64,000 nucleotides of DNA, from the NCBI RefSeq assembly GCF_044324785.1, contig NZ_CP172127.1; one strand, given 5' to 3'. Below are positions 9,270 through 63,526 of the stretch, one piece after another (position 1 is the stretch's first letter; every line of letters starts with the position of its first letter). A program made the position numbers and the translations under genes. This DNA is from Escherichia coli. GTDB taxonomy: Bacteria > Pseudomonadota > Gammaproteobacteria > Enterobacterales > Enterobacteriaceae. The notes under the pieces are model-generated. The model saw only the letters and a program-made list of their open reading frames with translations. It was not told the DNA's origin and searched no databases.

Positions 9270-9634
9270 GTAACTCCCGGGTTGATTCATACTCGGGAAT
9301 ATTTGTTGTTGAGCTTTTGTATGTTTCTGTTGGTATAATATGTTGCGGCAATTTATTTGCCGCATAATTTTCATTACATAAATTTAACCAAAGAATGTTC
9401 CGCAATCCATTGTAAACATTGAATGTTTATCTTTTCATGATATCAACTTGCGATCCTGATGTGTTAATAAAAAACCTCAAGTTCTCACTTACAGAAACTT
9501 TTGTGTTATTTCACCTAATCTTTAGGATTAATCCTTTTTTCGTGAGTATTCTTAGCGCCAGTTTGGTCTGGTCAGGAAATAGTTATACATCATGACCCGG
9601 ACTCCAAATTCAAAAATGAAATTAGGAGAAGAGC
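9270..9634 (+). promoter_or_regulatory. Pcad regulatory region (cadBA promoter; CadC and H-NS binding region)
   Basis: AT-rich 365-bp intergenic region between cadC and cadB; site positions not resolved. Confidence 0.5.
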
Positions 9635-10969
9635 ATGAGTTCTGCCAAGAAGATCGGGCTATTTGCCTGTACCGGTGTTGTTGCCGGTAATATGATGGGG
9701 AGCGGTATTGCATTATTACCTGCGAACCTAGCAAGTATCGGTGGTATTGCTATCTGGGGTTGGATTATCTCTATTATTGGTGCAATGTCGCTGGCATATG
9801 TATATGCCCGACTGGCAACAAAAAACCCGCAACAAGGTGGCCCAATTGCTTATGCCGGAGAAATTTCCCCTGCATTTGGTTTTCAGACAGGTGTTCTTTA
9901 TTACCATGCTAACTGGATTGGTAACCTGGCGATTGGTATTACCGCTGTATCTTATCTTTCCACCTTCTTCCCAGTATTAAATGATCCTGTTCCGGCGGGT
10001 ATCGCCTGTATTGCTATCGTCTGGGTATTTACCTTTGTAAATATGCTCGGCGGTACCTGGGTAAGCCGTTTAACCACTATTGGTCTGGTGCTGGTTCTTA
10101 TTCCTGTGGTTATGACTGCTATTGTTGGCTGGCATTGGTTTGATGCTGCGACTTATGCCGCTAACTGGAATACTGCGGATACCACCGATGGTCATGCGAT
10201 CATTAAAAGTATTCTGCTCTGCCTGTGGGCCTTCGTGGGTGTTGAATCCGCAGCTGTAAGTACTGGTATGGTTAAAAACCCGAAACGTACCGTTCCGCTG
10301 GCAACCATGCTGGGTACTGGTTTAGCAGGTATTGTTTATATCGCTGCGACTCAGGTGCTTTCCGGTATGTATCCGTCTTCTGTAATGGCAGCTTCCGGTG
10401 CTCCGTTTGCAATCAGTGCTTCAACTATCCTCGGTAACTGGGCTGCGCCGCTGGTTTCTGCATTCACCGCCTTTGCGTGCCTGACTTCTCTGGGCTCCTG
10501 GATGATGTTGGTAGGCCAGGCAGGTGTACGTGCCGCTAACGACGGTAACTTCCCGAAAGTTTATGGTGAAGTCGACAGCAACGGTATTCCGAAAAAAGGT
10601 CTGCTGCTGGCTGCAGTGAAAATGACTGCCCTGATGATCCTCATCACTCTGATGAACTCTGCCGGTGGTAAAGCATCTGACCTGTTCGGTGAACTGACCG
10701 GTATCGCAGTACTGCTGACTATGCTGCCGTACTTCTACTCTTGCGTTGACCTGATTCGTTTTGAAGGCGTTAACATCCGCAACTTTGTCAGCCTGATCTG
10801 CTCTGTACTGGGTTGCGTGTTCTGCTTCATCGCGCTGATGGGCGCAAGCTCCTTCGAGCTGGCAGGTACCTTCATCGTCAGCCTGATTATCCTGATGTTC
10901 TACGCTCGCAAAATGCACGAGCGCCAGAGCCACTCAATGGATAACCACACAGCGTCTAACGCACATTAA
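9635..10969 (+). CDS. cadB: Lysine:cadaverine antiporter
   Basis: 444 aa polytopic membrane protein matching CadB. Confidence 0.95.
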   Translation: MSSAKKIGLFACTGVVAGNMMGSGIALLPANLASIGGIAIWGWIISIIGAMSLAYVYARLATKNPQQGGPIAYAGEISPAFGFQTGVLYYHANWIGNLAIGITAVSYLSTFFPVLNDPVPAGIACIAIVWVFTFVNMLGGTWVSRLTTIGLVLVLIPVVMTAIVGWHWFDAATYAANWNTADTTDGHAIIKSILLCLWAFVGVESAAVSTGMVKNPKRTVPLATMLGTGLAGIVYIAATQVLSGMYPSSVMAASGAPFAISASTILGNWAAPLVSAFTAFACLTSLGSWMMLVGQAGVRAANDGNFPKVYGEVDSNGIPKKGLLLAAVKMTALMILITLMNSAGGKASDLFGELTGIAVLLTMLPYFYSCVDLIRFEGVNIRNFVSLICSVLGCVFCFIALMGASSFELAGTFIVSLIILMFYARKMHERQSHSMDNHTASNAH

Positions 10970-11048
10970 TTAAAAGTATTTTCCGAGGCTCCTCCTTTCA
11001 TTTTGTCCCATGTGTTGGGAGGGGCCTTTTTTACCTGGAGATATGACT

Positions 11049-13196
11049 ATGAACGTTATTGCAATATTGAATCACATGGGGGTTTATTTTAAAGAAGAAC
11101 CCATCCGTGAACTTCATCGCGCGCTTGAACGTCTGAACTTCCAGATTGTTTACCCGAACGACCGTGACGACTTATTAAAACTGATCGAAAACAATGCGCG
11201 TCTGTGCGGCGTTATTTTTGACTGGGATAAATATAATCTCGAGCTGTGCGAAGAAATTAGCAAAATGAACGAGAACCTGCCGTTGTACGCGTTCGCTAAT
11301 ACGTATTCCACTCTCGATGTAAGCCTGAACGATCTGCGTTTACAGATTAGCTTCTTTGAATATGCGCTGGGTGCTGCTGAAGATATTGCTAATAAGATCA
11401 AGCAGACCACTGACGAATATATCAACACTATTCTGCCTCCGCTGACCAAAGCACTGTTTAAATATGTTCGTGAAGGTAAATATACTTTCTGTACTCCTGG
11501 TCACATGGGCGGTACTGCATTCCAGAAAAGCCCGGTAGGTAGCCTGTTCTATGATTTCTTTGGTCCGAACACCATGAAATCTGATATTTCCATTTCAGTA
11601 TCTGAACTGGGTTCTCTGCTGGATCACAGTGGTCCACACAAAGAAGCAGAACAGTATATCGCTCGCGTCTTTAACGCAGACCGCAGCTACATGGTGACCA
11701 ACGGTACTTCCACTGCGAACAAAATTGTTGGTATGTACTCTGCTCCGGCAGGCAGCACCATTCTGATTGACCGTAACTGCCACAAATCGCTGACCCACCT
11801 GATGATGATGAGCGATGTTACGCCAATCTATTTCCGCCCGACCCGTAACGCTTACGGTATTCTTGGTGGTATCCCACAGAGTGAATTCCAGCACGCTACC
11901 ATTGCTAAGCGCGTGAAAGAAACACCAAACGCAACCTGGCCGGTACATGCTGTAATTACCAACTCTACCTATGATGGTCTGCTGTACAACACCGACTTCA
12001 TCAAGAAAACACTGGATGTGAAATCCATCCACTTTGACTCCGCGTGGGTGCCTTACACCAACTTCTCACCGATTTACGAAGGTAAATGCGGTATGAGCGG
12101 TGGCCGTGTAGAAGGGAAAGTGATTTACGAAACCCAGTCTACTCACAAACTGCTGGCGGCGTTCTCTCAGGCTTCCATGATCCACGTTAAAGGTGACGTA
12201 AACGAAGAAACCTTTAACGAAGCCTACATGATGCACACCACCACTTCTCCGCACTACGGTATCGTGGCGTCCACTGAAACCGCTGCGGCGATGATGAAAG
12301 GCAATGCAGGTAAGCGTCTGATCAACGGTTCCATTGAACGTGCGATCAAATTCCGTAAAGAGATCAAACGTCTGAGAACGGAATCTGATGGCTGGTTCTT
12401 TGATGTATGGCAGCCGGATCATATCGATACGACTGAATGCTGGCCGCTGCGTTCTGACAGCACCTGGCACGGCTTCAAAAACATCGATAACGAGCACATG
12501 TATCTTGACCCGATCAAAGTCACCCTGCTGACTCCGGGGATGGAAAAAGACGGCACCATGAGCGACTTCGGTATTCCGGCCAGCATCGTGGCGAAATACC
12601 TCGACGAACATGGCATCGTTGTTGAGAAAACCGGTCCGTATAACCTGCTGTTCCTGTTCAGCATCGGTATCGATAAGACCAAAGCACTGAGCCTGCTGCG
12701 TGCTCTGACAGACTTCAAACGTGCGTTCGATCTGAACCTGCGTGTGAAAAACATGCTGCCGTCTCTGTATCGTGAAGATCCTGAATTCTATGAAAACATG
12801 CGTATTCAGGAACTGGCTCAGAATATCCACAAACTGATTGTTCACCACAATCTGCCGGATCTGATGTATCGCGCATTTGAAGTTCTGCCGACCATGGTAA
12901 TGACTCCGTATGCTGCGTTCCAGAAAGAGCTGCACGGTATGACCGAAGAAGTTTACCTCGACGAAATGGTAGGTCGTATTAACGCCAATATGATCCTTCC
13001 GTATCCGCCGGGAGTTCCTCTGGTAATGCCGGGTGAAATGATCACCGAAGAAAGCCGTCCGGTTCTGGAGTTCCTGCAGATGCTGTGTGAAATCGGCGCT
13101 CACTATCCGGGCTTTGAAACCGATATTCACGGTGCATACCGTCAGGCTGATGGCCGCTATACCGTTAAGGTATTGAAAGAAGAAAGCAAAAAATAA
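11049..13196 (+). CDS. cadA: Inducible lysine decarboxylase
   Basis: 715 aa from MNVIAILNHM; PLP-lysine region STHKLL; ORF track start at 11010 is an upstream in-frame extension. Confidence 0.95.
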   Translation: MNVIAILNHMGVYFKEEPIRELHRALERLNFQIVYPNDRDDLLKLIENNARLCGVIFDWDKYNLELCEEISKMNENLPLYAFANTYSTLDVSLNDLRLQISFFEYALGAAEDIANKIKQTTDEYINTILPPLTKALFKYVREGKYTFCTPGHMGGTAFQKSPVGSLFYDFFGPNTMKSDISISVSELGSLLDHSGPHKEAEQYIARVFNADRSYMVTNGTSTANKIVGMYSAPAGSTILIDRNCHKSLTHLMMMSDVTPIYFRPTRNAYGILGGIPQSEFQHATIAKRVKETPNATWPVHAVITNSTYDGLLYNTDFIKKTLDVKSIHFDSAWVPYTNFSPIYEGKCGMSGGRVEGKVIYETQSTHKLLAAFSQASMIHVKGDVNEETFNEAYMMHTTTSPHYGIVASTETAAAMMKGNAGKRLINGSIERAIKFRKEIKRLRTESDGWFFDVWQPDHIDTTECWPLRSDSTWHGFKNIDNEHMYLDPIKVTLLTPGMEKDGTMSDFGIPASIVAKYLDEHGIVVEKTGPYNLLFLFSIGIDKTKALSLLRALTDFKRAFDLNLRVKNMLPSLYREDPEFYENMRIQELAQNIHKLIVHHNLPDLMYRAFEVLPTMVMTPYAAFQKELHGMTEEVYLDEMVGRINANMILPYPPGVPLVMPGEMITEESRPVLEFLQMLCEIGAHYPGFETDIHGAYRQADGRYTVKVLKEESKK

Positions 13197-24110: not shown

Positions 24111-24761
24111 ATGACCCGCACACTCAAGCCGTTAATTCTTAACACCGGCGCACTGGCGCTAACGTTAATCCTGATTTATACCGGCATTTCGGCCCATGAC
24201 AAACTCACCTGGCTGATGGAAGTGACACCGGTGATTATTGTCGTGCCGCTACTGCTTGCCACCGCCAGACGTTATCCGTTAACGCCGCTGCTCTATACGC
24301 TCATTTTCTTTCACGCCATCATCCTGATGGTCGGCGGACAATACACCTACGCGAAAGTCCCCGTTGGTTTTGAGGTGCAGGAATGGCTGGGGTTGAGTCG
24401 TAATCCGTATGACAAGCTGGGGCACTTTTTCCAGGGGCTGGTGCCTGCACTGGTGGCACGAGAAATTCTCGTTCGCGGGATGTACGTGCGCGGACGTAAA
24501 ATGGTGGCGTTCCTGGTCTGCTGCGTGGCGCTGGCGATAAGCGCGATGTATGAATTAATCGAGTGGTGGGCGGCGCTGGCAATGGGCCAGGGAGCGGATG
24601 ATTTTCTCGGCACCCAGGGCGACCAGTGGGACACGCAATCCGATATGTTCTGCGCGCTGCTTGGCGCATTAACGACGGTGATATTCCTCGCTCGCTTTCA
24701 TTGCCGCCAGCTACGGCGCTTTGGCTTAATCACCAGAGCGCCGGAAGCGATTACCCCTTAA
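24111..24761 (+). CDS. yjdF: Inner membrane protein YjdF (DUF2238)
   Basis: 216 aa hydrophobic protein; stop codon shares the tetranucleotide TTAA with the melA stop on the other strand. Confidence 0.8.
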   Translation: MTRTLKPLILNTGALALTLILIYTGISAHDKLTWLMEVTPVIIVVPLLLATARRYPLTPLLYTLIFFHAIILMVGGQYTYAKVPVGFEVQEWLGLSRNPYDKLGHFFQGLVPALVAREILVRGMYVRGRKMVAFLVCCVALAISAMYELIEWWAALAMGQGADDFLGTQGDQWDTQSDMFCALLGALTTVIFLARFHCRQLRRFGLITRAPEAITP

Positions 24762-34762: not shown

Positions 34763-35854
34763 ATGCGTTTTCTGCGCAGACCAATATCGCTGCGCCAACG
34801 GCTGATATTGACCATCGGGGCCATTTTGTTGGTGTTTGAGCTGATCAGCGTCTTCTGGCTATGGCATGAAAGTACCGAGCAGATTCAGCTGTTTGAGCAG
34901 GCGCTACGCGACAATCGCAACAACGATCGCCACATCATGCGTGAGATCCGCGAGGCGGTCGCCAGCCTGATTGTCCCCGGCGTCTTTATGGTCAGCCTGA
35001 CGCTATTTATCTGCTATCAGGCGGTACGCCGCATCACCCGGCCGCTGGCGGAGCTGCAAAAAGAGCTGGAAGCGCGCACCGCCGACAATTTAACGCCTAT
35101 TGCCATTCACAGTGCCACCCTCGAAATCGAAGCGGTGGTTTCGGCGTTAAACGATCTGGTCAGTCGCCTGACCAGCACGCTGGATAACGAAAGGTTGTTT
35201 ACCGCTGACGTCGCGCACGAACTGCGAACGCCACTGGCGGGGGTGCGTTTGCATCTGGAACTGCTGGCGAAAACGCATCACATTGATGTAGCACCGTTAG
35301 TGGCACGGCTTGATCAGATGATGGAGAGTGTCTCCCAGCTACTGCAACTGGCGCGTGCCGGACAGTCATTTTCTTCCGGGAATTATCAACATGTAAAACT
35401 GCTGGAAGATGTCATTCTCCCCTCGTATGACGAACTCAGTACCATGCTCGACCAGCGCCAGCAAACCCTGCTATTGCCAGAGAGCGCCGCCGACATCACC
35501 GTTCAGGGTGATGCAACCCTGCTGCGGATGTTATTGCGAAACCTGGTAGAAAATGCCCATCGTTACAGCCCGCAAGGCAGCAACATTATGATTAAGCTGC
35601 AAGAAGATGGCGGAGCGGTCATGGCCGTTGAAGATGAAGGACCGGGTATTGATGAGAGTAAATGCGGGGAGTTGAGTAAAGCGTTTGTACGTATGGACAG
35701 CCGTTATGGCGGGATTGGTCTGGGGTTAAGTATTGTCAGCCGCATTACACAGTTGCATCACGGGCAGTTTTTCCTGCAAAACCGGCAAGAAACTTCCGGC
35801 ACGCGGGCCTGGGTACGGCTGAAGAAAGATCAGAACGTGGCAAACCAGATATAA
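34763..35854 (+). CDS. basS: Sensor kinase BasS (PmrB)
   Basis: 363 aa from the ATG at MRFLRRP; ORF track begins at an upstream TTG (34754). Confidence 0.85.
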   Translation: MRFLRRPISLRQRLILTIGAILLVFELISVFWLWHESTEQIQLFEQALRDNRNNDRHIMREIREAVASLIVPGVFMVSLTLFICYQAVRRITRPLAELQKELEARTADNLTPIAIHSATLEIEAVVSALNDLVSRLTSTLDNERLFTADVAHELRTPLAGVRLHLELLAKTHHIDVAPLVARLDQMMESVSQLLQLARAGQSFSSGNYQHVKLLEDVILPSYDELSTMLDQRQQTLLLPESAADITVQGDATLLRMLLRNLVENAHRYSPQGSNIMIKLQEDGGAVMAVEDEGPGIDESKCGELSKAFVRMDSRYGGIGLGLSIVSRITQLHHGQFFLQNRQETSGTRAWVRLKKDQNVANQI

Positions 35855-35919
35855 AGAAAGCTGCTGACCACCAGCACGCTGAACACGGTAGTTAAACTTT
35901 CATAAACACGGTTTTTCAT
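35830..35919 (-). CDS. pmrR: PmrR small membrane protein (29 aa)
   Basis: Hand-translated minus-strand ORF MKNRVYESLTTVFSVLVVSSFLYIWFATF; overlaps the basS 3' end antisense. Confidence 0.6.
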   Translation of the reverse strand: MKNRVYESLTTVFSVLVVSSFLYIWFATF

Positions 35920-36030
35920 TGCACTCTCCTCCGTTAACCTGGAGGAGAGTATGCGCGTCAGAGATTAAGTGAACCTTAAGAGTTCAATTGGCCTGATAAG
36001 ACAGCGTCACATCAGGCCATCCGTTTCAGC

Positions 36031-41637: not shown

Positions 41638-41655
41638 TTGTATTGTGATCGGTAA

Positions 41656-41731
41656 GCCGGATAAGGCGCTCGCGCCGCATCCGGCAACGATGCCGACAGC
41701 CTGATGCGACGCTGACCGCGTCTTATCAGGC
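41656..41731. repeat. REP/BIME palindromic repeat cluster
   Basis: gccggataaggcg...cgccgcatccggc and gcctgatgcgacgctg...cgtcttatcaggc imperfect palindromes. Confidence 0.5.
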
Positions 41732-41796
41732 TTCCCTCTCATCTGTATAAATTTCGAACTACACTTAACTGGCTTCTCTTAACTGAGGTCACCATC

Positions 41797-42240: not shown

Positions 42241-42265
42241 CCCGCCGGGAGGGCCGCCCTCCCGC

Positions 42266-42340
42266 ACTGTCATCGAAATCTCGTTAACTCTTCATCCGTT
42301 AGTCACTTTTAGTTAACAAAATCGTCACAATAATCCGCCA
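42266..42340 (+). promoter_or_regulatory. phnC promoter region with candidate Pho box
   Basis: CTGTCAT-like 7-bp units (ctgtcat, ttagtca, tcgtcac) with AT-rich spacers upstream of phnC. Confidence 0.4.
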
Positions 42341-42372
42341 CGATGGAGCCACTTTTTTAGGGAGGCTGCATC

Positions 42373-43161
42373 ATGCAAACGATTATCCGTGTCGAGAAGC
42401 TCGCCAAAACCTTCAATCAGCATCAGGCGCTGCACGCGGTTGATCTGAACATTCATCACGGTGAAATGGTGGCTCTGCTTGGGCCGTCGGGTTCCGGCAA
42501 ATCCACCCTTTTACGTCACTTAAGCGGTTTGATTACCGGCGATAAATCTGCCGGTAGCCATATCGAGCTGCTGGGCCGCACAGTCCAGCGCGAAGGCCGC
42601 CTGGCACGCGATATCCGCAAAAGCCGCGCCAACACCGGCTACATCTTCCAACAATTCAACCTGGTGAATCGCCTGAGCGTACTGGAGAACGTGCTGATTG
42701 GCGCGCTCGGCAGCACGCCATTCTGGCGCACCTGTTTTAGCTACTTCACCCGCGAGCAGAAACAGCGCGCGTTACAGGCGCTGACCCGCGTTGGCATGGT
42801 GCATTTTGCCCATCAGCGCGTTTCCACCCTCTCCGGCGGGCAACAGCAGCGTGTGGCGATTGCCCGCGCGCTGATGCAGCAGGCGAAGGTGATTCTGGCG
42901 GACGAACCCATCGCCTCGCTGGACCCGGAATCAGCGCGCATCGTGATGGACACCCTGCGCGACATCAACCAGAACGACGGCATTACCGTGGTCGTCACGC
43001 TGCATCAGGTGGATTACGCCCTGCGCTACTGCGAACGCATCGTCGCCCTGCGCCAGGGGCACGTCTTCTACGACGGCAGCAGCCAACAGTTTGATAACGA
43101 ACGCTTTGATCATCTCTATCGCAGCATCAACCGCGTCGAAGAGAACGCGAAAGCTGCCTGA
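42373..43161 (+). CDS. phnC: Phosphonate ABC transporter ATPase
   Basis: 262 aa; Walker [10 protein letters not shown]. Confidence 0.9.
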
Positions 43162-43185
43162 CATCCCCATCATTGAGGAAAACGA

Positions 43186-44202
43186 ATGAACGCTAAGATA
43201 ATTGCCTCGCTGGCCTTCACCAGCATGTTCAGCCTCAGCACCCTGTTAAGCCCGGCGCACGCCGAAGAGCAGGAAAAGGCGCTGAATTTCGGCATTATTT
43301 CAACGGAATCACAGCAAAACCTGAAACCGCAATGGACGCCGTTCTTACAGGATATGGAGAAGAAGCTGGGCGTAAAGGTCAACGCCTTCTTTGCCCCGGA
43401 CTACGCGGGCATTATCCAGGGGATGCGCTTCAATAAAGTGGATATCGCCTGGTACGGCAACCTGTCTGCGATGGAAGCGGTGGATCGCGCCAACGGTCAG
43501 GTCTTCGCCCAGACAGTCGCGGCGGATGGATCGCCAGGTTACTGGAGCGTGTTGATCGTCAACAAAGACAGTCCGATCAACAACCTGAACGATCTGCTGG
43601 CGAAGCGTAAAAATCTCACCTTTGGCAATGGCGATCCTAACTCCACCTCTGGCTTCCTCGTCCCCGGCTACTACGTCTTCGCCAAAAACAATATCTCCGC
43701 CAGCGACTTCAAGCGCACCGTCAACGCCGGGCATGAAACCAACGCGCTGGCCGTCGCCAACAAGCAGGTGGATGTGGCGACCAACAACACCGAGAACCTC
43801 GACAAGTTGAAAACCTCCGCACCGGAGAAGCTCAAAGAGCTGAAAGTGATCTGGAAATCGCCGCTGATCCCAGGCGATCCGATCGTCTGGCGCAAAAATC
43901 TGTCCGAAACCACCAAAGACAAGATCTACGACTTCTTTATGAACTACGGCAAAACGCCGGAAGAGAAAGCGGTGCTGGAGCGCCTGGGATGGGCCCCGTT
44001 CCGCGCCTCCAGCGACCTGCAACTGGTGCCGATTCGCCAACTCGCACTGTTTAAAGAGATGCAGGGCGTAAAAGGTAATAAAGGGCTGAATGAGCAGGAC
44101 AAGCTGGCAAAAACCAGCGCCATTCAGGCGCAACTGGATGACCTGGACCGCCTGAACAACGCGTTAAGCGCGATGAGTTCGGTGAGTAAAGCGGTGCAGT
44201 AA
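43186..44202 (+). CDS. phnD: Phosphonate ABC transporter periplasmic binding protein
   Basis: 338 aa with signal peptide. Confidence 0.9.
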   Translation: MNAKIIASLAFTSMFSLSTLLSPAHAEEQEKALNFGIISTESQQNLKPQWTPFLQDMEKKLGVKVNAFFAPDYAGIIQGMRFNKVDIAWYGNLSAMEAVDRANGQVFAQTVAADGSPGYWSVLIVNKDSPINNLNDLLAKRKNLTFGNGDPNSTSGFLVPGYYVFAKNNISASDFKRTVNAGHETNALAVANKQVDVATNNTENLDKLKTSAPEKLKELKVIWKSPLIPGDPIVWRKNLSETTKDKIYDFFMNYGKTPEEKAVLERLGWAPFRASSDLQLVPIRQLALFKEMQGVKGNKGLNEQDKLAKTSAIQAQLDDLDRLNNALSAMSSVSKAVQ

Positions 44203-44209
44203 ATCGTAA

Positions 44210-44292
44210 GTCGGATAAGACGCCACGGCGTCGCATCCGACAATGTGCAGACGTTGATGCCGGATGCGGTGCAAGCACCTTATCCGGCCTAC
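44210..44292. repeat. REP/BIME palindromic repeat cluster
   Basis: gtcggataagacgccacggcgtcgcatccgac and gccggatgcggtgcaagcaccttatccggc. Confidence 0.5.
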
Positions 44293-44307
44293 AGACCGGA
44301 GCCAAAC

Positions 44308-45087
44308 ATGCAAACCATCACCATCGCCCCACCCAAGCGCAGCTGGTTCTCGCTTCTGAGCTGGGCCGTTGTTCTCGCCGTGCTGGTCGTCTCGTGGCAG
44401 GGCGCGGAAATGGCCCCGCTCACGCTTATCAAAGACGGCGGCAACATGGCGACGTTCGCCGCCGACTTCTTCCCGCCCGATTTCAGCCAGTGGCAGGATT
44501 ACCTCACCGAAATGGCCGTCACGCTGCAAATCGCCGTCTGGGGCACCGCGCTGGCGGTGGTTCTCTCCATCCCCTTTGGCCTGATGAGCGCCGAAAACCT
44601 GGTGCCGTGGTGGGTTTACCAGCCCGTACGCCGCCTGATGGACGCCTGCCGCGCCATTAACGAGATGGTCTTCGCCATGCTGTTCGTGGTCGCCGTCGGT
44701 CTCGGTCCGTTCGCTGGCGTACTGGCGCTGTTTATCCACACCACCGGCGTGCTCTCCAAACTGCTTTCCGAAGCGGTAGAAGCAATTGAACCCGGTCCGG
44801 TGGAAGGTATTCGCGCCACCGGTGCCAACAAGCTCGAAGAGATCCTCTACGGCGTGCTGCCGCAGGTGATGCCGCTGCTGATCTCCTACTCCCTCTATCG
44901 CTTCGAATCCAACGTCCGTTCGGCCACCGTTGTTGGCATGGTCGGCGCGGGCGGGATCGGCGTCACCCTGTGGGAAGCGATTCGCGGTTTCCAGTTCCAG
45001 CAAACCTGCGCCCTGATGGTGCTGATTATCGTCACGGTCAGCCTGCTGGATTTCCTCTCTCAACGGTTGCGTAAGCACTTTATCTGA
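44308..45087 (+). CDS. phnE: Phosphonate ABC transporter permease, intact reading frame
   Basis: 259 aa continuous ORF from [10 protein letters not shown]. Confidence 0.85.
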
Positions 45088-45107
45088 TAAGCGAGGCATT
45101 GATATCT

Positions 45108-45833
45108 ATGCACTTGTCTACACATCCGACCAGCTACCCAACACGCTATCAGGAGATAGCCGCAAAACTTGAGCAGGAGCTTCGTCAACACTACCGCTGC
45201 GGCGACTATCTTCCCGCCGAGCAGCAACTGGCGGCGCGCTTTGAGGTGAACCGCCACACCCTGCGCCGCGCCATCGACCAACTGGTGGAAAAAGGCTGGG
45301 TACAGCGCCGTCAGGGCGTCGGCGTGCTGGTGCTGATGCGCCCGTTCGATTACCCGCTCAACGCCCAGGCGCGTTTTAGCCAGAACCTGCTGGATCAGGG
45401 CAGCCATCCCACCAGCGAAAAACTGCTGTCTGTGCTGCGCCCGGCCTCCGGTCACGTCGCTGACGCGCTGGGGATAACCGAGGGCGAGAACGTTATCCAC
45501 CTGCGCACCCTGCGCCGGGTCAACGGCGTCGCGCTCTGTTTAATCGACCACTACTTTGCGGACCTCACCCTCTGGCCGACGCTGCAACGCTTCGACAGCG
45601 GCTCGCTGCACGATTTTCTGCGCGAGCAAACGGGGATTGCGCTGCGCCGCAGCCAGACGCGGATCAGCGCCCGCCGCGCCCAGGCCAAAGAGTGCCAGCG
45701 TCTTGAAATCCCGAATATGTCGCCGTTGCTGTGCGTGCGCACCCTTAACCACCATGACGGTGAAAGCAGCCCGGCGGAGTACTCCGTCAGCCTGACGCGC
45801 GCCGACATGATTGAATTCACTATGGAGCACTGA
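45108..45833 (+). CDS. phnF: GntR-family repressor of the phn operon
   Basis: 241 aa from MHLSTHPTSY. Confidence 0.9.
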   Translation: MHLSTHPTSYPTRYQEIAAKLEQELRQHYRCGDYLPAEQQLAARFEVNRHTLRRAIDQLVEKGWVQRRQGVGVLVLMRPFDYPLNAQARFSQNLLDQGSHPTSEKLLSVLRPASGHVADALGITEGENVIHLRTLRRVNGVALCLIDHYFADLTLWPTLQRFDSGSLHDFLREQTGIALRRSQTRISARRAQAKECQRLEIPNMSPLLCVRTLNHHDGESSPAEYSVSLTRADMIEFTMEH

Positions 45834-46286
45834 ATGCACGCAGATACCGCGACCCGCCAGCACTGGATGTCCGTACTGGCACACAGCCAACCGGCTGAAC
45901 TGGCAGCCCGCCTGAAGGCGCTGAACATCACCGCCGACTATGAGGTGATCCGCGCCGCCGAAACTGGCCTGGTGCAGATTCAGGCGCGGATGGGTGGCAC
46001 CGGCGAACGCTTTTTTGCTGGCGACGCCACGCTCACCCGCGCCGCCGTACGCCTGACTGACGGCACGCTCGGCTACAGCTGGGTGCTGGGGCGCGACAAA
46101 CAGCACGCCGAACGCTGCGCGCTGATCGACGCGCTGATGCAGCAAACCCGCCATTTTCAAAACTTATCAGAAACTCTTATTGCCCCGCTGGACGCTGACC
46201 GTATGGCACGCATTGCCGCACGCCAGGCCGAAGTGAACGCCAGCCGGGTCGACTTCTTTACGATGGTTCGCGGAGACAACGCATGA
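45834..46286 (+). CDS. phnG: C-P lyase system protein PhnG
   Basis: 150 aa; operon order. Confidence 0.9.
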
Positions 46287-46867
46287 CCCTGGAAACCGCT
46301 TTTATGCTTCCCGTGCAGGATGCCCAGCACAGTTTTCGTCGCCTGTTAAAGGCCATGAGCGAGCCGGGCGTGATTGTCGCCCTGCATCAGCTCAAGCGCG
46401 GCTGGCAGCCGCTGAATATCGCCACCACCAGCGTGCTGCTGACGCTGGCCGATAACGACACGCCGGTGTGGCTTTCTGCGCCATTAAGTAACGATATCGT
46501 CAGCCAGAGCCTGCGTTTTCATACCAACGCGCCGCTGGTCAGCCAGCCGGAACAGGCGACCTTCGCGGTAACGGATGAGGCGATTTCCAGCGAACAGCTC
46601 AACGCCCTTTCCACCGGCACCGCCGTTGCGCCAGAAGCGGGCGCGACGCTGATTTTACAGGTCGCCAGCCTGAGCGGCGGGCGCATGCTGCGCCTTACTG
46701 GCGCGGGCATTGCCGAAGAACGAATGATCGCCCCGCAGCTGCCAGAGTGCATTCTGCACGAACTCACCGAGCGCCCGCACCCGTTCCCGCTCGGCATCGA
46801 CCTGATCCTGACCTGCGGCGAGCGCCTGCTGGCTATCCCACGAACCACTCATGTGGAGGTGTGCTGA
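46283..46867 (+). CDS. phnH: C-P lyase system protein PhnH
   Basis: 194 aa; overlapping stop/start with neighbours. Confidence 0.9.
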
Positions 46868-47931
46868 TGTACGTTGCCGTGAAAGGGGGCGAGAAGGCGA
46901 TCGACGCCGCCCACGCCCTGCAAGAGAGCCGACGCCGGGGCGATACCGATTTGCCCGAACTGAGCGTCGCCCAGATTGAACAGCAGCTTAACCTCGCGGT
47001 AGATCGCGTGATGACCGAAGGCGGCATTGCCGACCGCGAACTGGCGGCGCTGGCGCTGAAACAGGCCAGCGGCGATAACGTCGAAGCAATTTTCCTGCTG
47101 CGCGCCTACCGCACCACGCTGGCGAAGCTCGCGGTAAGCGAGCCGCTCGACACCACGGAGATGCGTCTCGAACGGCGTATTTCAGCGGTTTATAAAGATA
47201 TTCCCGGCGGCCAGCTGCTTGGCCCAACCTACGACTACACCCATCGCCTGCTCGATTTCACCCTGCTGGCAAACGGCGAAGCGCCGACGCTGACCACAGC
47301 CGACAGCGAACAACAGCCGTCGCCGCACGTTTTCAGCCTGCTGGCGCGTCAGGGGCTGGCGAAGTTTGAAGAAGATAGCGGCGCACAGCCGGACGACATC
47401 ACCCGCACGCCGCCGGTTTACCCCTGCTCACGCTCCTCCCGCCTGCAACAATTAATGCGCGGCGACGAAGGCTATTTGCTGGCACTGGCCTACTCCACCC
47501 AGCGTGGTTACGGACGCAATCATCCGTTCGCAGGCGAAATCCGCAGTGGCTATATCGACGTGTCGATTGTGCCGGAAGAGCTGGGATTTGCGGTGAACGT
47601 CGGCGAACTGCTGATGACCGAATGTGAAATGGTCAACGGTTTTATCGACCCGCCGGATGAGCCGCCGCACTTCACGCGCGGCTACGGGCTGGTGTTCGGC
47701 ATGAGCGAGCGCAAAGCGATGGCGATGGCGCTGGTTGACCGCGCTCTGCAAGCCCCGGAGTACGGCGAGCACGCGACAGGCCCGGCGCAGGATGAAGAGT
47801 TCGTGCTGGCGCATGCCGACAACGTCGAAGCCGCAGGCTTTGTCTCGCACCTTAAACTCCCGCACTACGTCGATTTCCAGGCCGAACTGGAGCTACTCAA
47901 ACGTCTGCAACAGGAGCAGAACCATGGCTAA
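46867..47931 (+). CDS. phnI: C-P lyase system protein PhnI
   Basis: 354 aa from [14 protein letters not shown] track start at 46747 is an upstream extension. Confidence 0.9.
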   Translation: MYVAVKGGEKAIDAAHALQESRRRGDTDLPELSVAQIEQQLNLAVDRVMTEGGIADRELAALALKQASGDNVEAIFLLRAYRTTLAKLAVSEPLDTTEMRLERRISAVYKDIPGGQLLGPTYDYTHRLLDFTLLANGEAPTLTTADSEQQPSPHVFSLLARQGLAKFEEDSGAQPDDITRTPPVYPCSRSSRLQQLMRGDEGYLLALAYSTQRGYGRNHPFAGEIRSGYIDVSIVPEELGFAVNVGELLMTECEMVNGFIDPPDEPPHFTRGYGLVFGMSERKAMAMALVDRALQAPEYGEHATGPAQDEEFVLAHADNVEAAGFVSHLKLPHYVDFQAELELLKRLQQEQNHG

Positions 47932-48769
47932 TCTGAGCGGCTACAACTTTGCCTACCTCGACGAGCAGACCAAACGCATGATCCGCCGCGCCATCTTAAA
48001 AGCGGTGGCGATCCCCGGTTATCAGGTGCCGTTTGGCGGGCGCGAGATGCCGATGCCATACGGCTGGGGAACTGGTGGTATCCAGCTTACCGCCAGCGTG
48101 ATTGGCGAAAGCGACGTGTTGAAGGTGATTGACCAGGGCGCGGATGACACCACCAACGCCGTGTCGATTCGCAACTTCTTTAAGCGCGTGACCGGGGTAA
48201 ACACCACTGAACGTACGGACGATGCGACGCTTATCCAGACGCGTCACCGCATCCCCGAAACGCCGCTGACCGAAGATCAGATCATTATCTTCCAGGTGCC
48301 AATCCCGGAACCGCTGCGCTTTATCGAGCCGCGCGAAACGGAAACCCGCACTATGCACGCGCTGGAGGAGTACGGCGTGATGCAGGTGAAACTGTATGAA
48401 GATATCGCCCGCTTCGGTCATATCGCCACCACTTATGCCTATCCGGTGAAGGTGAACGGGCGCTACGTGATGGACCCGTCGCCGATCCCGAAATTCGATA
48501 ACCCCAAAATGGACATGATGCCCGCCCTGCAGCTGTTCGGCGCAGGACGCGAGAAGCGCATCTATGCGGTGCCGCCGTTTACCCGCGTGGAAAGCCTCGA
48601 TTTCGACGATCACCCGTTCACCGTTCAACAGTGGGATGAGCCGTGCGCCATCTGCGGATCGACCCACAGCTATCTCGACGAAGTGGTACTGGATGACGCC
48701 GGAAACCGCATGTTTGTCTGCTCCGATACCGATTATTGCCGCCAACAGAGCGAGGCAAAAAACCAATGA
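47924..48769 (+). CDS. phnJ: C-P lyase catalytic subunit PhnJ
   Basis: 281 aa from MANLSGYNFAYLDEQ; C-terminal Cys cluster. Confidence 0.9.
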   Translation: MANLSGYNFAYLDEQTKRMIRRAILKAVAIPGYQVPFGGREMPMPYGWGTGGIQLTASVIGESDVLKVIDQGADDTTNAVSIRNFFKRVTGVNTTERTDDATLIQTRHRIPETPLTEDQIIIFQVPIPEPLRFIEPRETETRTMHALEEYGVMQVKLYEDIARFGHIATTYAYPVKVNGRYVMDPSPIPKFDNPKMDMMPALQLFGAGREKRIYAVPPFTRVESLDFDDHPFTVQQWDEPCAICGSTHSYLDEVVLDDAGNRMFVCSDTDYCRQQSEAKNQ

Positions 48770-49524
48770 ATCAACCGTTACTTTCGGTCAATAACCTGAC
48801 CCACCTTTACGCGCCGGGCAAAGGCTTTAGCGATGTCTCTTTTGATTTATGGCCGGGGGAAGTGCTGGGCATCGTCGGGGAGTCCGGCTCCGGGAAGACC
48901 ACGCTGCTGAAATCAATCTCCGCGCGCCTGACGCCGCAGCAGGGGGAGATTCGCTATGAAAACCGCTCCCTCTATGGCATGAGCGAAGCCGACCGCCGCC
49001 GTTTACTGCGCACCGAATGGGGCGTGGTACATCAGCATCCGCTCGACGGCCTGCGCCGCCAGGTGTCGGCAGGCGGCAATATCGGCGAGCGGCTGATGGC
49101 GACCGGGGCGCGTCATTACGGCGACATCCGCGCCACCGCGCAGAAGTGGCTGGAGGAGGTGGAGATTCCCTCCAACCGGATCGACGACCTGCCGACCACC
49201 TTTTCCGGCGGTATGCAGCAACGTTTGCAGATTGCCCGCAACCTGGTGACGCATCCGAAGCTGGTGTTTATGGACGAGCCAACCGGCGGGCTGGATGTAT
49301 CGGTACAGGCGCGCCTGCTCGATCTGCTGCGCGGTCTGGTGGTGGAGCTGAATCTGGCGGTGGTGATTGTCACCCACGATCTGGGCGTCGCCCGCCTGCT
49401 GGCGGACCGTTTGCTGGTGATGAAACAGGGGCAAGTGGTGGAGAGTGGGTTAACCGACCGCGTGCTCGACGACCCGCATCATCCGTATACCCAGCTGCTG
49501 GTGTCATCGGTTTTGCAGAATTGA
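48766..49524 (+). CDS. phnK: C-P lyase system ATP-binding protein PhnK
   Basis: 252 aa from MNQPLLSVNNL; Walker A GESGSGKTT. Confidence 0.9.
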   Translation: MNQPLLSVNNLTHLYAPGKGFSDVSFDLWPGEVLGIVGESGSGKTTLLKSISARLTPQQGEIRYENRSLYGMSEADRRRLLRTEWGVVHQHPLDGLRRQVSAGGNIGERLMATGARHYGDIRATAQKWLEEVEIPSNRIDDLPTTFSGGMQQRLQIARNLVTHPKLVFMDEPTGGLDVSVQARLLDLLRGLVVELNLAVVIVTHDLGVARLLADRLLVMKQGQVVESGLTDRVLDDPHHPYTQLLVSSVLQN

Positions 49525-49530
49525 GCCAGT

Positions 49531-49612
49531 GCCGGATACGGCGTAAACGCCTTATCCGGCCGACAAATGCGCTCCCCGTAGGTCGGATAAGACACGTCAG
49601 CGTCGCATCCGA
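49531..49612. repeat. REP/BIME palindromic repeat cluster between phnK and phnL
   Basis: gccggatacggcgtaaacgccttatccggc and gtcggataagacacgtcagcgtcgcatccgac. Confidence 0.5.
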
Positions 49613-49634
49613 CACCTGAACCACGAGGCGAAAA

Positions 49635-50315
49635 ATGATTAACGTACAAAACGTCAGTAAAACCTTCATCCTGCACCAGCAAAACGGCGTGCGCCTGCCC
49701 GTCTTACAACGTGCCTCGCTCACCGTCAACGCAGGCGAATGCGTGGTGCTTCACGGCCACTCCGGCAGCGGAAAATCAACCCTGCTGCGCTCGCTGTACG
49801 CCAACTATCTGCCCGACGAAGGGCAAATCCAGATCAAACACGGTGACGAATGGGTCGATCTGGTCACCGCGCCAGCGCGCAAAGTGGTGGAGATCCGCAA
49901 AACCACCATCGGCTGGGTGAGCCAGTTTCTGCGCGTCATCCCGCGTATTTCGGCACTGGAAGTGGTGATGCAGCCGCTGCTCGATACCGGCGTACCGCGT
50001 GAAGCCTGCGCCGCTAAAGCCGCCCGATTACTGACGCGCCTGAACGTGCCTGAACGCCTGTGGCACCTGGCACCATCGACCTTCTCCGGCGGCGAACAGC
50101 AGCGCGTCAACATCGCGCGCGGTTTTATCGTCGACTATCCGATTCTGCTGCTGGATGAACCCACCGCCTCGCTGGACGCTAAAAACAGCGCCGCGGTGGT
50201 GGAACTAATTCGCGAAGCCAAAGCCCGTGGCGCGGCCATCGTCGGTATCTTCCATGACGAAGCCGTACGCAATGACGTCGCCGACCGCCTGCACCCAATG
50301 GGAGTCTCTTCATGA
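49635..50315 (+). CDS. phnL: C-P lyase system ATP-binding protein PhnL
   Basis: 226 aa; Walker [10 protein letters not shown]. Confidence 0.9.
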
Positions 50316-51448
50316 TTATCAATAACGTCAAACTGGTGCTGGAAAACGAAGTGGTGCACGGTTCACTGGAAGTACAGGATGGCGAAATTCGCGCCTTTGC
50401 CGAAAGCCAGAGCCGCCAGCCGGAAGCGATGGACGGCGAAGGTGGCTGGCTACTACCCGGCCTGATTGAGCTGCATACCGACAACCTCGATAAATTCTTC
50501 ACCCCGCGCCCGAAAGTCGACTGGCCCGCCCATTCGGCGATGAGCAGCCACGACGCGCTGATGGTGGCAAGCGGCATCACCACCGTACTGGACGCCGTGG
50601 CGATTGGTGATGTGCGCGACGGCGGCGATCGGCTGGAGAATCTGGAGAAGATGATCAACGCCATCGAAGAGACGCAGAAACGCGGCGTCAACCGCGCCGA
50701 GCACCGCCTGCACCTGCGCTGCGAACTGCCGCACCACACCACGTTGCCGCTGTTTGAAAAACTGGTGCAGCGCGAACCGGTGACGCTGGTATCGCTGATG
50801 GACCACTCGCCAGGCCAGCGCCAGTTCGCCAATCGCGAGAAGTATCGCGAATATTATCAGGGCAAATATTCCCTCACCGATGCGCAGATGCAGCAGTACG
50901 AAGAAGAGCAATTGGCGCTCGCCGCACGCTGGTCACAACCTAATCGCGAAACCATCGCCGCAATGTGCCGCGCGCGACACATTGCCCTCGCCAGCCACGA
51001 TGACGCCACGCACGCCCACGTTGCCGAATCCCACCAGCTTGGCAGCGTGATCGCCGAATTTCCCACTACGTTCGAAGCGGCACAAGCCTCGCGCAAGCAT
51101 GGCATGAACGTGCTGATGGGCGCGCCGAATATCGTGCGCGGCGGTTCGCACTCCGGCAACGTGGCGGCCAGTGAACTGGCGCAGCTTGGCCTGCTGGATA
51201 TCCTCTCTTCCGACTACTACCCCGCCAGCCTGCTCGATGCGGCATTTCGCGTCGCCGATGACGAGAGCAACCGCTTTACGCTGCCGCAGGCGGTGAAGCT
51301 GGTGACTAAAAATCCGGCGCAGGCGCTTAATCTTCAGGATCGCGGGGTGATTGGCGAGGGCAAACGCGCCGACCTGGTGCTGGCGCATCGCAAGGGCAAC
51401 CACATTCATATCGACCACGTCTGGCGTCAGGGTAAAAGGGTGTTCTGA
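50312..51448 (+). CDS. phnM: PhnM, amidohydrolase-family protein of the C-P lyase pathway
   Basis: 378 aa. Confidence 0.9.
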
Positions 51449-52005
51449 TGACGGGAAAACTGATTTGGTTAATGGGGGCCTCTGGCTCCGGAAAAGACAG
51501 TCTGTTGACGGAACTCCGCCAGCGGGAACAAACTCAGTTACTGGTGGCGCATCGCTACATCACGCGCGATGCCAGCGCCGGAAGCGAAAATCATATCGCC
51601 CTGAGCGAGCAGGAGTTTTTTACCCGCGCGGGGCAAAATCTGCTGGCCTTAAGCTGGCACGCCAACGGCCTGTATTATGGCATCGGCGTCGAGATTGACC
51701 TCTGGCTGCACGCTGGATTTGACGTGGTGGTCAACGGCTCACGCGCCCATCTGCCGCAGGCGCGGGCGCGCTATCAATCGGCGCTGCTGCCCGTTTGTTT
51801 ACAGGTTTCGCCAGAGATCCTGCGCCAGCGCCTGGAAAACCGTGGTCGTGAAAATGCCAGTGAAATTAACGCCCGACTAGCACGCGCTGCCCGCTATACT
51901 CCTCAGGATTGCCATACGCTCAATAATGACGGCAGCCTGCGCCAGTCGGTCGACACGCTGCTGACGCTGATTCATCAGAAGGAGAAACACCATGCCTGCT
52001 TGTGA
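51448..52005 (+). CDS. phnN: Ribose 1,5-bisphosphate phosphokinase PhnN
   Basis: 185 aa; P-loop GASGSGKDS. Confidence 0.9.
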
Positions 52006-52426
52006 GCTTCGCCCGGCTACGCAGTACGACACCGACGCAGTTTACGCGCTGATTTGTGAGCTAAAACAGGCGGAGTTTGACCACCACGCGTTTCGCGTGG
52101 GCTTTAACGCCAACCTGCGCGACCCAAACATGCGCTACCATCTGGCGCTACTGGATGGCGAAGTTGTCGGCATGATCGGCCTGCATTTGCAGTTTCATCT
52201 GCATCATGTCAACTGGATCGGCGAAATTCAGGAGTTGGTGGTGATGCCGCAGGCGCGCGGCCTGAACGTCGGTAGCAAGTTGCTGGCGTGGGCAGAAGAA
52301 GAAGCCCGCCAGGCCGGGGCCGAAATGACCGAGCTTTCGACCAACGTGAAGCGCCACGACGCGCACCGTTTCTATCTGCGAGAAGGCTACGAGCAGAGTC
52401 ACTTCCGCTTCACCAAGGCGCTGTAA
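51992..52426 (+). CDS. phnO: Aminoalkylphosphonate N-acetyltransferase PhnO
   Basis: 144 aa GNAT. Confidence 0.9.
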
Positions 52427-52427
52427 C

Positions 52428-53186
52428 ATGAGCCTGACCCTCACACTTACTGGCACTGGCGGCGCACAGGGCGTTCCCGCATGGGGCTGTGAGTGCGTGG
52501 CCTGCGTCAGAGCGCGGCGCTCACCGCAGTATCGCCGCCAGCCATGTAGCGGCGTCGTGAAGTTTAACGACGCGATCACCCTGATCGACGCCGGGCTGCA
52601 CGATCTCGCCGATCGCTGGTCGCCCGGATCGTTCCAGCAGTTTTTGCTGACGCACTACCATATGGATCACGTGCAGGGACTGTTTCCGCTGCGCTGGGGC
52701 GTGGGCGATCAGATCCCGGTCTACGGCCCGCCGGATGAACAGGGCTGCGACGATCTGTTTAAACATTCGGGCCTGCTTGATTTCAGCCACACGGTGGAGC
52801 CATTTGTGATGTTTGATTTGCAGGGATTACAGGTCACGCCGCTGCCGCTCAACCATTCGAAACTCACTTTCGGCTATCTACTGGAAACGGCACATAGCCG
52901 GGTGGCGTGGCTGTCTGACACCGCAGGCCTGCCGGAAAAAACGCTGAAATTTTTACGCAATAATCAGCCACAGGTAATGGTGATTGATTGCAGCCACCCA
53001 CCGCGCGAGGATGCACCGCGTAATCACTGTGATTTAAATACCGTGCTTGCGCTGAATCAGGTTATCCGCTCGCCACGGGTGATTCTGACTCATATCAGCC
53101 ACCAGTTTGATGCGTGGCTGATGGAAAACGCACTGCCGTCGGGGTTTGAGGCGGGGTTTGATGGGATGGAGATTGGGGTGGCGTGA
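52428..53186 (+). CDS. phnP: PhnP, metallo-beta-lactamase-fold phosphodiesterase
   Basis: 252 aa; HYHMDH motif. Confidence 0.9.
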
Positions 53187-53220
53187 TGGGTGAGGGGCGA
53201 TGCCTGCTCTAAACTCAACA

Positions 53221-53550
53221 TCACCGCCCATACTCATCTTCCATTCTCCGCTCTTCATCCTCCAGTTGCCGACGCTCCTGATCAAGCTGGCGCTGGCGAT
53301 CGTCCAGCTGCCTGCGGCGATCTTCAAACTGGCGGCGGCGATCGTCATATTGTCTGCGCCGATCGTCGTTCACTTCACGCTGCCAGCCGTCGTCGCGCGA
53401 ATCTTCATAGTCTCGCCCACGGTCAGGGTTATAAGCATCGTTAATCGCCTGCTGAATATTGCCAATGGTGTCGTCGATAATATCGGCCTGGGCCGGAACG
53501 GTGGACAGCGTGAGCAGGGTGAATAAAAGAAATAGCGGAAAACGTTTCAT
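53221..53550 (-). CDS. yjdP: Secreted Arg/Asp-rich protein YjdP
   Basis: 109 aa with signal peptide and DRRRQ repeats. Confidence 0.8.
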   Translation of the reverse strand: MKRFPLFLLFTLLTLSTVPAQADIIDDTIGNIQQAINDAYNPDRGRDYEDSRDDGWQREVNDDRRRQYDDRRRQFEDRRRQLDDRQRQLDQERRQLEDEERRMEDEYGR

Positions 53551-53618
53551 TAGCCAACCTCAAAAAGAAACTCTATCCACATTAGTCATTACTCATCCAT
53601 GCAAGTAGTGGATGAATC

Positions 53619-53814
53619 TCAATTTCTCCGCTGCTCTATTGCCGTAATCGCCTCCACGCGTTGTTGATGACGACCGCCTTCGTACTGCGCGCCCAGCCAC
53701 GCATCCACAATCATTTTTGCCAGTTCGAGGCCAACCACTCGTGAACCAAAAGCCAGTGCAACTTCACTGGCGTAATGCGGATAATCAGTGCGCTCTGACG
53801 ACCTGGTTCTTTAT
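53619..53814 (-). pseudogene. rpiB: Degenerate remnant of rpiB (ribose-5-phosphate isomerase B)
   Basis: Minus-strand translation gives SSERTDYPHYASEVALA fused to FGSRVVGLELAKMIVDAWLGAQYEGGRHQQRVEAITAIEQRRN-stop, matching RpiB N- and C-terminal segments as I recall them with the catalytic middle missing; upstream frame is closed. Confidence 0.45.
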
Positions 53815-54147
53815 CAATCCCCTCACTCATTGACCATAAATACAAGGCTGGCACAGCAACGCGGAATCCTGCGGTGCCAGCGACATGACCGCCCATTGCT
53901 CCGGTACTTTTTTTAAAAAGAAACATCGGTTGCATTGATAAATATATAAAACACCTCATATTATTTACGGAGATAATAAATTCGCGTGCTTTTCCCTCTT
54001 CAGCACAAATGCCTAATAAAATGGCTCGTTCCGCTCACACTTCCACTTATTAAAGTCGCAATTTCCCAATTATGATAACGCCAGCTTTAAATGACGTATT
54101 TTGCATGGGTTACATATTTACGACACAAATGATAAATGGAGATTTAT

Positions 54148-61378: not shown

Positions 61379-63526
61379 ATGAAAAAAGTCGTCACGGTTT
61401 GCCCCTATTGCGCATCAGGTTGCAAAATCAACCTGGTCGTCGATAACGGCAAAATCGTCCGGGCGGAGGCAGCGCAGGGGAAAACCAACCAGGGTACCCT
61501 GTGTCTGAAGGGTTATTATGGCTGGGATTTCATTAACGATACCCAGATCCTGACCCCGCGCCTGAAAACCCCCATGATCCGTCGCCAGCGTGGCGGCAAA
61601 CTCGAACCTGTTTCCTGGGATGAGGCACTGAATTACGTTGCCGAGCGCCTGAGCGCCATCAAAGAGAAGTACGGTCCGGATGCCATCCAGACGACCGGCT
61701 CCTCGCGTGGTACGGGTAACGAAACCAACTATGTAATGCAAAAATTTGCGCGCGCCGTTATTGGTACCAATAACGTTGACTGCTGCGCTCGTGTCTGACA
61801 CGGCCCATCGGTTGCAGGTCTGCACCAATCGGTCGGTAATGGCGCAATGAGCAATGCTATTAACGAAATTGATAATACCGATTTAGTGTTCGTTTTCGGG
61901 TACAACCCGGCGGATTCCCACCCAATCGTGGCGAACCACGTAATTAACGCTAAACGTAACGGGGCGAAAATTATCGTCTGCGATCCGCGCAAAATTGAAA
62001 CCGCGCGCATTGCTGACATGCACATTGCACTGAAAAACGGCTCGAACATCGCGCTGTTGAATGCGATGGGTCATGTCATTATTGAAGAAAACCTGTACGA
62101 CAAAGCTTTCGTCGCTTCCCGTACAGAAGGCTTTGAAGAGTATCGTAAAATCGTTGAAGGCTACACGCCGGAGTCGGTTGAAGATATCACCGGCGTCAGC
62201 GCCAGTGAGATTCGTCAGGCGGCGCGGATGTATGCCCAGGCGAAAAGCGCCGCCATCCTGTGGGGCATGGGTGTAACCCAGTTCTACCAGGGCGTGGAAA
62301 CCGTGCGTTCTCTGACCAGCCTCGCGATGCTGACTGGTAACCTCGGTAAGCCGCATGCGGGTGTAAACCCGGTTCGTGGTCAGAACAACGTGCAGGGTGC
62401 CTGCGATATGGGCGCGCTGCCGGATACGTATCCGGGATACCAGTACGTGAAAGATCCGGCTAACCGCGAGAAATTCGCCAAAGCCTGGGGCGTGGAAAAC
62501 CTGCCTGCTCATACCGGCTATCGCATCAGCGAGCTGCCGCACCGCGCAGCGCATGGCGAAGTGCGTGCCGCGTACATTATGGGCGAAGATCCGCTGCAAA
62601 CTGACGCGGAGCTGTCGGCAGTACGTAAAGCCTTTGAAGATCTGGAACTGGTCATCGTTCAGGACATCTTTATGACCAAAACCGCGTCGGCTGCGGATGT
62701 TATTTTACCATCAACGTCGTGGGGCGAGCATGAAGGCGTGTTTACTGCGGCTGACCGTGGCTTCCAGCGTTTCTTCAAGGCGGTTGAACCGAAGTGGGAT
62801 CTGAAAACGGACTGGCAAATCATCAGTGAAATTGCCACTCGTATGGGTTATCCGATGCACTACAACAACACCCAGGAGATCTGGGATGAGTTGCGTCATC
62901 TGTGCCCGGATTTCTACGGTGCGACTTACGAGAAAATGGGCGAACTGGGCTTCATTCAGTGGCCTTGCCGCGATACTTCAGATGCCGATCAGGGGACTTC
63001 TTATCTGTTTAAAGAGAAGTTTGATACCCCGAACGGTCTGGCGCAGTTCTTCACCTGCGACTGGGTAGCGCCAATCGACAAACTCACCGACGAGTACCCG
63101 ATGGTACTGTCAACGGTGCGTGAAGTTGGTCACTACTCTTGCCGTTCGATGACCGGTAACTGTGCGGCACTGGCGGCGCTGGCTGATGAACCTGGCTACG
63201 CACAAATCAATACCGAAGACGCCAAACGTCTGGGTATTGAAGATGAGGCATTGGTTTGGGTGCACTCGCGTAAAGGCAAAATTATCACCCGTGCGCAGGT
63301 CAGCGATCGTCCGAACAAAGGGGCGATTTACATGACCTACCAGTGGTGGATTGGTGCCTGTAACGAGCTGGTTACCGAAAACTTAAGCCCGATTACGAAA
63401 ACGCCGGAATACAAATACTGCGCCGTGCGCGTCGAGCCGATCGCCGATCAGCGCGCCGCCGAGCAGTACGTGATTGACGAGTACAACAAGTTGAAAACTC
63501 GCCTGCGCGAAGCGGCACTGGCGTAA
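61379..63526 (+). CDS. fdhF: Formate dehydrogenase H, selenocysteine-containing (in-frame UGA at 61796-61798 decoded as Sec)
   Basis: ORF track splits the gene at TGA 61796-61798, but the same frame continues to 63526 giving 715 codons; N-terminal Cys cluster CPYCASGC. Confidence 0.9.
61796..61840 (+). other. UGA-Sec codon plus SECIS stem-loop of fdhF
   Basis: tgacacggcccatcggttgcaggtctgcaccaatcggtcggtaatggcg immediately 3' of the in-frame UGA, matching the classical fdhF SECIS as I recall it. Confidence 0.7.

Follow-up and report, generated by a model that had tools for sequence, protein, structure and literature searches.

A two-unit phnE allele with an uninterrupted reading frame in a complete phn operon of an Escherichia coli strain

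The phn operon and its surroundings

In this study, we analysed a stretch of Escherichia coli DNA of 64,000 nucleotides (contig NZ_CP172127.1, assembly GCF_044324785.1), referred to here as the window, with emphasis on phnE and on the phosphonate utilization operon to which it belongs. All 14 phn genes are present and uninterrupted, and they are without insertions or deletions relative to K-12 save for one repeat unit in phnE. Every product matches its family, and in profile searches the family models were matched essentially end to end by each of them. The operon and the elements within it are as follows.

42241–42372, + strand: yjdN–phnC spacer with the phn promoter and the putative Pho-box region (alignment with K-12)
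42373–43161, + strand: phnC, ABC transporter ATPase, 262 aa (NF007438, 606 bits, positions 1–262 of 262; K-12 length, four amino acid differences)
43186–44202, + strand: phnD, periplasmic phosphonate-binding protein, 338 aa (TIGR03431, 375 bits; K-12 length, four amino acid differences)
44209–44289, − strand: REP-type palindromic element in the phnD–phnE spacer (Rfam naRNA4, RF02564, 64.6 bits against a gathering score of 59.5)
44308–45087, + strand: phnE, ABC transporter permease, 259 aa, intact (translation, TIGR01097, PF00528)
44713–44728, + strand: 8-bp repeat tract within phnE, two units, GCTGGCGT ACTGGCGC (alignment; K-12 has three)
45108–45833, + strand: phnF, GntR-family regulator, 241 aa (NF007486, 517 bits, positions 1–241 of 241; one amino acid difference from K-12)
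45834–46286, + strand: phnG, 150 aa (TIGR03293)
46283–46867, + strand: phnH, 194 aa (TIGR03292)
46867–47931, + strand: phnI, 354 aa (PF05861, 515 bits)
47924–48769, + strand: phnJ, C-P lyase catalytic subunit, 281 aa (PF06007, 502 bits)
48766–49524, + strand: phnK, 252 aa (TIGR02323, 410 bits)
49635–50315, + strand: phnL, 226 aa (TIGR02324, 371 bits)
50312–51448, + strand: phnM, 378 aa (NF011981, 810 bits)
51448–52005, + strand: phnN, 185 aa (NF007485, 356 bits)
51992–52426, + strand: phnO, 144 aa (NF007530, 315 bits; protein identical to that of K-12)
52428–53186, + strand: phnP, 252 aa (TIGR03307, 426 bits)

The plus strand from 44308 to 45087 translates without interruption over 259 codons up to a terminal TGA, and an earlier note on this DNA, which had described a continuous phnE of 259 codons, was therefore right in both coordinates and codon count. 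In the mechanically generated list of open reading frames the same frame is opened at a GTG codon at 44245, which would yield a protein of 280 aa. This start falls within the REP element, ahead of a GGAG sequence that is itself located 8 nt upstream of the ATG at 44308, and the RefSeq start for the identical PhnE protein of strain TUM1886 is the ATG equivalent to 44308; the latter was therefore preferred. The protein scores 311.5 bits against the NCBIfam equivalog TIGR01097 (cutoff 216.7), with residues 16–258 covering profile positions 8–251 of 252, and 91.8 bits against the Pfam family PF00528 (BPD_transp_1) over residues 88–258. A loop with the pattern E166-x5-G172-x11-L184-P185 can be read from the translation, and we take it to be the EAA-type cytoplasmic coupling loop of ABC importer permeases. 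The exact 259-aa sequence has been recorded under the name PhnE on at least 1000 contigs, so that an open reading frame which is intact by chance is not an issue here, and phnC and phnD adjoin the gene directly upstream on the same strand. An antisense open reading frame of 311 aa that covers phnE (44164–45099, − strand) is without a Pfam match and was taken as a chance frame opposite a GC-rich gene. The phnD–phnE spacer is near-identical in the window and in K-12; in the sampled listing of matches, the alignment of some E. coli genomes begins at query base 98 and does not include the spacer.

The earlier note had also described a complete phnF–P set. The genes phnF to phnP are indeed intact downstream of phnE, and phnC and phnD are likewise intact upstream of it. 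These 13 genes are collinear with those of K-12 and of equal length, start with ATG and are free of internal stops. Relative to K-12 there are 436 nucleotide differences in them but only 48 amino acid differences, which indicates purifying selection, and about nine in ten of the codons that differ across the operon leave the amino acid unchanged. Two gap positions seen in phnL with blastn were an artefact, as the global alignment shows none.

The operon as a whole (42373–53186) is 93–97 % identical to K-12 at the nucleotide level, whereas its flanks are 98–99.7 % identical (yjdM 99.7 %, rdcA 98.9 %). Among the E. coli complete-genome matches listed, the best identity to the operon over 13 kb is 98.1 %. 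This divergence from K-12, combined with an identity of at most 98.1 % to the listed complete genomes, points to a mosaic or recombinant haplotype. The top-listed E. coli matches to the window show identities of 97–98.7 %, and these low values probably reflect the ranking of matches by coverage, the island at 1–7500 and the apparently mosaic phn operon. A reading of the window as part of a divergent Escherichia lineage was dropped in view of the flank identities to K-12 and of the adiA–rdcA block (the adi–proP block), which is 99.3 % identical to E. coli strain 042.

Among the GTDB species representatives, an exact 46-mer of the window has its only match in Pseudocitrobacter vendiensis. In the type strain of this species (NZ_CALSBS010000011.1) the phnE–phnF segment at 10179–11780 shares 97.2 % identity with the window and has an identical repeat tract, while the yjdM–phnD segment at 7147–10128 shows 89 % and the proP region 82 % identity. 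The phnE–phnF segment of P. vendiensis looks like an E. coli-like segment, introduced by recombination or transfer, or like the product of a mosaic assembly.

Several further differences from K-12 were seen outside the operon. At 24735–24757, 23 bp take the place of 1,668 bp of K-12 (the melA–melB spacer, the whole of melB and a few terminal bases of yjdF), such that the ends of melA and yjdF nearly abut and melB is absent; the strain is accordingly predicted to be without the melibiose permease. Downstream of phnP, at 53187–54136, the window has neither the D-allose (als) operon nor the 5' part of rpiB; homology to K-12 ends at 53756 within rpiB, yjcS follows at 54136, and 112 bp that K-12 has between phnP and yjdP are missing as well. 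At the other end of the window, positions 1–7500 hold island-type genes adjoining cadC, where K-12 has yjdQ, the pheU tRNA gene and dicD. Judged by eye from the translated frames, the island encodes a YeeP-like GTPase, DUF945-like, antirestriction, RadC-like and CbeA/CbtA-like proteins, and a ParD/ParE-like pair at 6262–6848. A search of the window with ARAGORN found no tRNA gene, which implies that pheU lies beyond the island or has been displaced. Rfam searches placed three additional elements in the window.

35823–35988, − strand: sRNA STnc630, overlapping pmrR and the end of basS
41655–41732, + strand: further REP-type element (naRNA4), located between yjdM and yjdN
61791–61845, + strand: fdhF SECIS element

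The 8-bp repeat unit in phnE

The earlier note had described laboratory K-12 as carrying a frameshifted phnE. This agrees with the annotation of MG1655, in which both RefSeq copies of the gene are marked 'frameshifted' or pseudo, and published work likewise describes this gene as a frameshifted pseudogene whose tract holds three 8-bp units (PMC6469041; PMC7566553). An alignment with the MG1655 gene, which the earlier note had proposed as a check, was run at the nucleotide level, with the window, MG1655 and the intact annotated phnE of TUM1886 aligned together. The sole indel relative to MG1655 is one 8-bp repeat unit, and there is none relative to TUM1886; a hidden frameshift, the result that the earlier note had named as contrary to its claim, was thus not found in either comparison. 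The tract of MG1655 consists of the three units GCTGGCGT GCTGGCGT GCTGGCGC. While a K-12-type OFF allele is marked by three tandem units together with the frameshift, the window has two units.

When one unit is removed from MG1655 phnE in silico, the resulting protein is identical to the PhnE of the window at 259 of 259 residues, and the 25 nucleotide differences that separate the window from the unit-deleted K-12 gene are all synonymous. In the unmodified K-12 gene the frame departs after residue 139 and runs into a stop at codon 190. What is lost in this way is the second half of the protein, and with it the E166...G172...L184-P185 loop. In a K-12 revertant, an 8-bp deletion of 5'-GCTGGCGT at phnE positions 407–414 reactivated PhnCDE (PMC6469041), and the unit that is missing from the window sits at the position of this published deletion. 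According to PMC6469041 and its references 5–7, K-12 phnE+ revertants regain the uptake of both phosphonate and Pi via PhnCDE.

Variation of the tract among E. coli genomes

To place the two-unit tract in the species, 5,426 complete E. coli genomes were surveyed with a probe of 100 nt that covers the tract of K-12, and with this probe the phnE tract locus was found in 4,944 records. The three-unit (K-12 type) tract is present in about 1,009 records at a probe identity of at least 95 % (1001 at 99 % or more, 8 at 95–99 %), which puts the share of complete E. coli genomes with the three-unit OFF allele at about 19 %. About 3,935 records fall in the 80–95 % identity band and were assigned to the two-unit tract, each two-unit entry among the matches listed having a 92-nt span; counted within this number is one record among the matches listed with a 108-nt span and a four-unit tract. 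The intact two-unit phnE is the majority state, found in about 80 % of complete E. coli genomes. That the gene is intact in the window is correct but already known for the species, and is well documented (Makino 1991; Iqbal 2004; Stasi 2019).

The three-unit OFF allele extends beyond K-12, and its carriers include natural isolates of human faecal, pig, dog and seawater origin. Two loci were inspected for the expanded tract (NZ_CM147699.1 and NZ_CP139125.1; tract from locus position 939). A human faecal isolate from Germany with a genome of 5.40 Mb has a three-unit phnE annotated as 'frameshifted', and a pig-farm isolate from China has a four-unit tract. In both isolates the PhnD and PhnF proteins are identical to those of K-12, which places the expanded alleles on a K-12-like haplotype. 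The literature of 2004 reportedly described the OFF form of phnE as peculiar to K-12, and the distribution of the three-unit allele is wider than this. That roughly one in five complete E. coli genomes carries the K-12-type OFF allele bears on the status of phnE as a K-12 marker, and the population count is relevant to studies of contingency switching at the phnE tract.

The tract of the window differs from that of K-12 not only in length. At position 44721, where the second unit begins, an A takes the place of G. This change from GTG to GTA (Val138) is silent, and it leaves a perfect repeat of 6 bases in place of 7, a loss of a single base. An exact 39-mer with this A is present in 408 of the 5,426 genomes (about 7.5 %), all of which have two units. 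When the 5,426 genomes were probed for an expanded A-containing tract, none was found, and the best full-length matches were G-type three-unit tracts with 2–3 mismatches. On the G-type haplotype the number of units varies between 2, 3 and 4, while the A-type has only 2 in its 408 genomes, counts that are not phylogenetically independent.

These data bear on whether the ON state of phnE in the window is lasting. It is conceivable, although in our estimate unlikely, that phnE is phase-variable, being ON as sequenced and flipping OFF at an appreciable frequency through slipped-strand gain of 8 bp; 'functional' would then describe a state of the population rather than a fixed property of the gene. 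Iqbal 2004 reportedly described reversible switching at the phnE tract in K-12, and the three- and four-unit alleles of natural isolates would fit with such a process. However, the two units of the window share only six consecutive bases (CTGGCG), as the silent G to A change breaks the repeat, and among the 5,426 genomes no expanded A allele was found, as opposed to about 1,009 of the G-type. Furthermore, 1001 of these 1,009 expanded alleles are at least 99 % identical to K-12 over the 100 nt and may trace to few events. The converse suggestion, that the A-interrupted tract represents a slippage-resistant, 'locked-ON' phnE allele, would be in keeping with these counts, but we put it forward tentatively and consider it doubtful, since the genomes counted share ancestry and the repeat is only one base shorter.

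Function of the operon and likeness to known alleles

Taken together, the sequence comparisons lead us to suggest with high confidence that 44308–45087 is an ordinary functional, two-unit ON allele of phnE in a complete 14-gene C-P lyase operon. In its sequenced form the PhnCDE transporter very probably works, because the PhnE sequence is that of experimentally active revertants. Based on the amino acid identity with the PhnE of an active K-12 revertant (PMC6469041), we infer that the protein of the window would transport phosphonate, as well as Pi, in vivo. The steps that follow have been established in E. coli and are here extended to the window strain. Under phosphate limitation, PhoB would activate the promoter upstream of phnC, PhnD would bind phosphonate in the periplasm, the PhnE permease would import it, powered by the PhnC ATPase, and PhnG–P would turn phosphonate into phosphate-yielding products. 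It has been reported that orthophosphate is also imported by PhnCDE (PMC6469041). K-12, in turn, is Phn-negative only through the third copy of GCTGGCGT, which throws phnE out of frame after codon 139, ahead of the conserved cytoplasmic loop for coupling to the ATPase. As the extra 8-bp unit is absent from the window, reversion should not be needed, and phosphonate use without a reversion event is the best-supported expectation for this strain.

The promoter was also compared with that of K-12. The yjdN–phnC spacer carries six substitutions in 132 positions (95 % identity). Three of the six fall in a stretch upstream of phnC that is the putative Pho box, reportedly described by Makino 1991: CTGTTAG to CCGTTAG, TTTTAAT to TTTTAGT and CAAATCG to AAAATCG. 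The first of these is a T to C change in the second base of the first putative half-site, and it could lower activation by PhoB. The 132-bp promoter allele of the window is present at an identity of at least 99 % in 391 E. coli records and is identical in TUM1886; since it is natural and common, a silent phn operon in the window strain seems unlikely.

A broader possibility is that all frames are intact and that the strain is nevertheless Phn-negative or only weakly positive, through the Pho-box variants, through a substitution in PhnC, PhnD or PhnG–P, or through a defect outside the window, for example in phoBR. The three substitutions in the putative Pho-box stretch, including the T to C change in its first half-site, and the 48 amino acid differences from K-12 across the other 13 phn genes might be taken to point in this direction. 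However, the promoter allele is shared with the 391 records, silent changes prevail among the differing codons at about nine in ten, which would be unexpected for a long-silent operon, and each phn protein gives a full-length match to its family model, so that we regard a Phn-negative or weakly positive strain as unlikely. A hidden defect in phnE itself, be it a frameshift masked by a second, compensating indel, an incorrectly chosen start or a number of units miscounted in the assembly at what is a known slippage site where genomes vary at 2, 3 or 4 units, is extremely improbable and refuted as far as sequence analysis reaches, given that the only indel in either alignment is the 8-bp unit relative to MG1655, that PhnE is identical at every residue to that of the K-12 revertant and of TUM1886, and that the GGAG sequence 8 nt upstream of the ATG agrees with the RefSeq start.

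An ordinary functional phnE therefore remains our preferred reading. For the window it means the annotation of a functional phnE in a complete phn operon, which has little import beyond being correct. The strain is predicted to be Phn+, with phosphonate use and phosphate uptake via PhnCDE, which is the expected state for E. coli other than K-12.

Among known systems, the phnE+ alleles known from E. coli B and from Phn+ revertants of K-12 (Makino et al. 1991; Stasi et al. 2019, PMC6469041) resemble that of the window in having two units and the same position in phnCDEFGHIJKLMNOP. On the K-12 haplotype the phnE+ tract reads GCTGGCGT GCTGGCGC, whereas that of the window reads GCTGGCGT ACTGGCGC, with the G to A change at the unit junction. 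The cryptic phnE of K-12 (b4583, the phnE1 pseudogene) has the same locus and neighbours as in the window at 96–97 % nucleotide identity, but it carries the third 8-bp unit, which the window is without. The phnE of E. coli TUM1886 (WP_001193500.1) shares with the window an identical protein, tract and 132-bp promoter allele, and the two differ by a few synonymous changes, with 99.3 % identity over a 1001-bp query.
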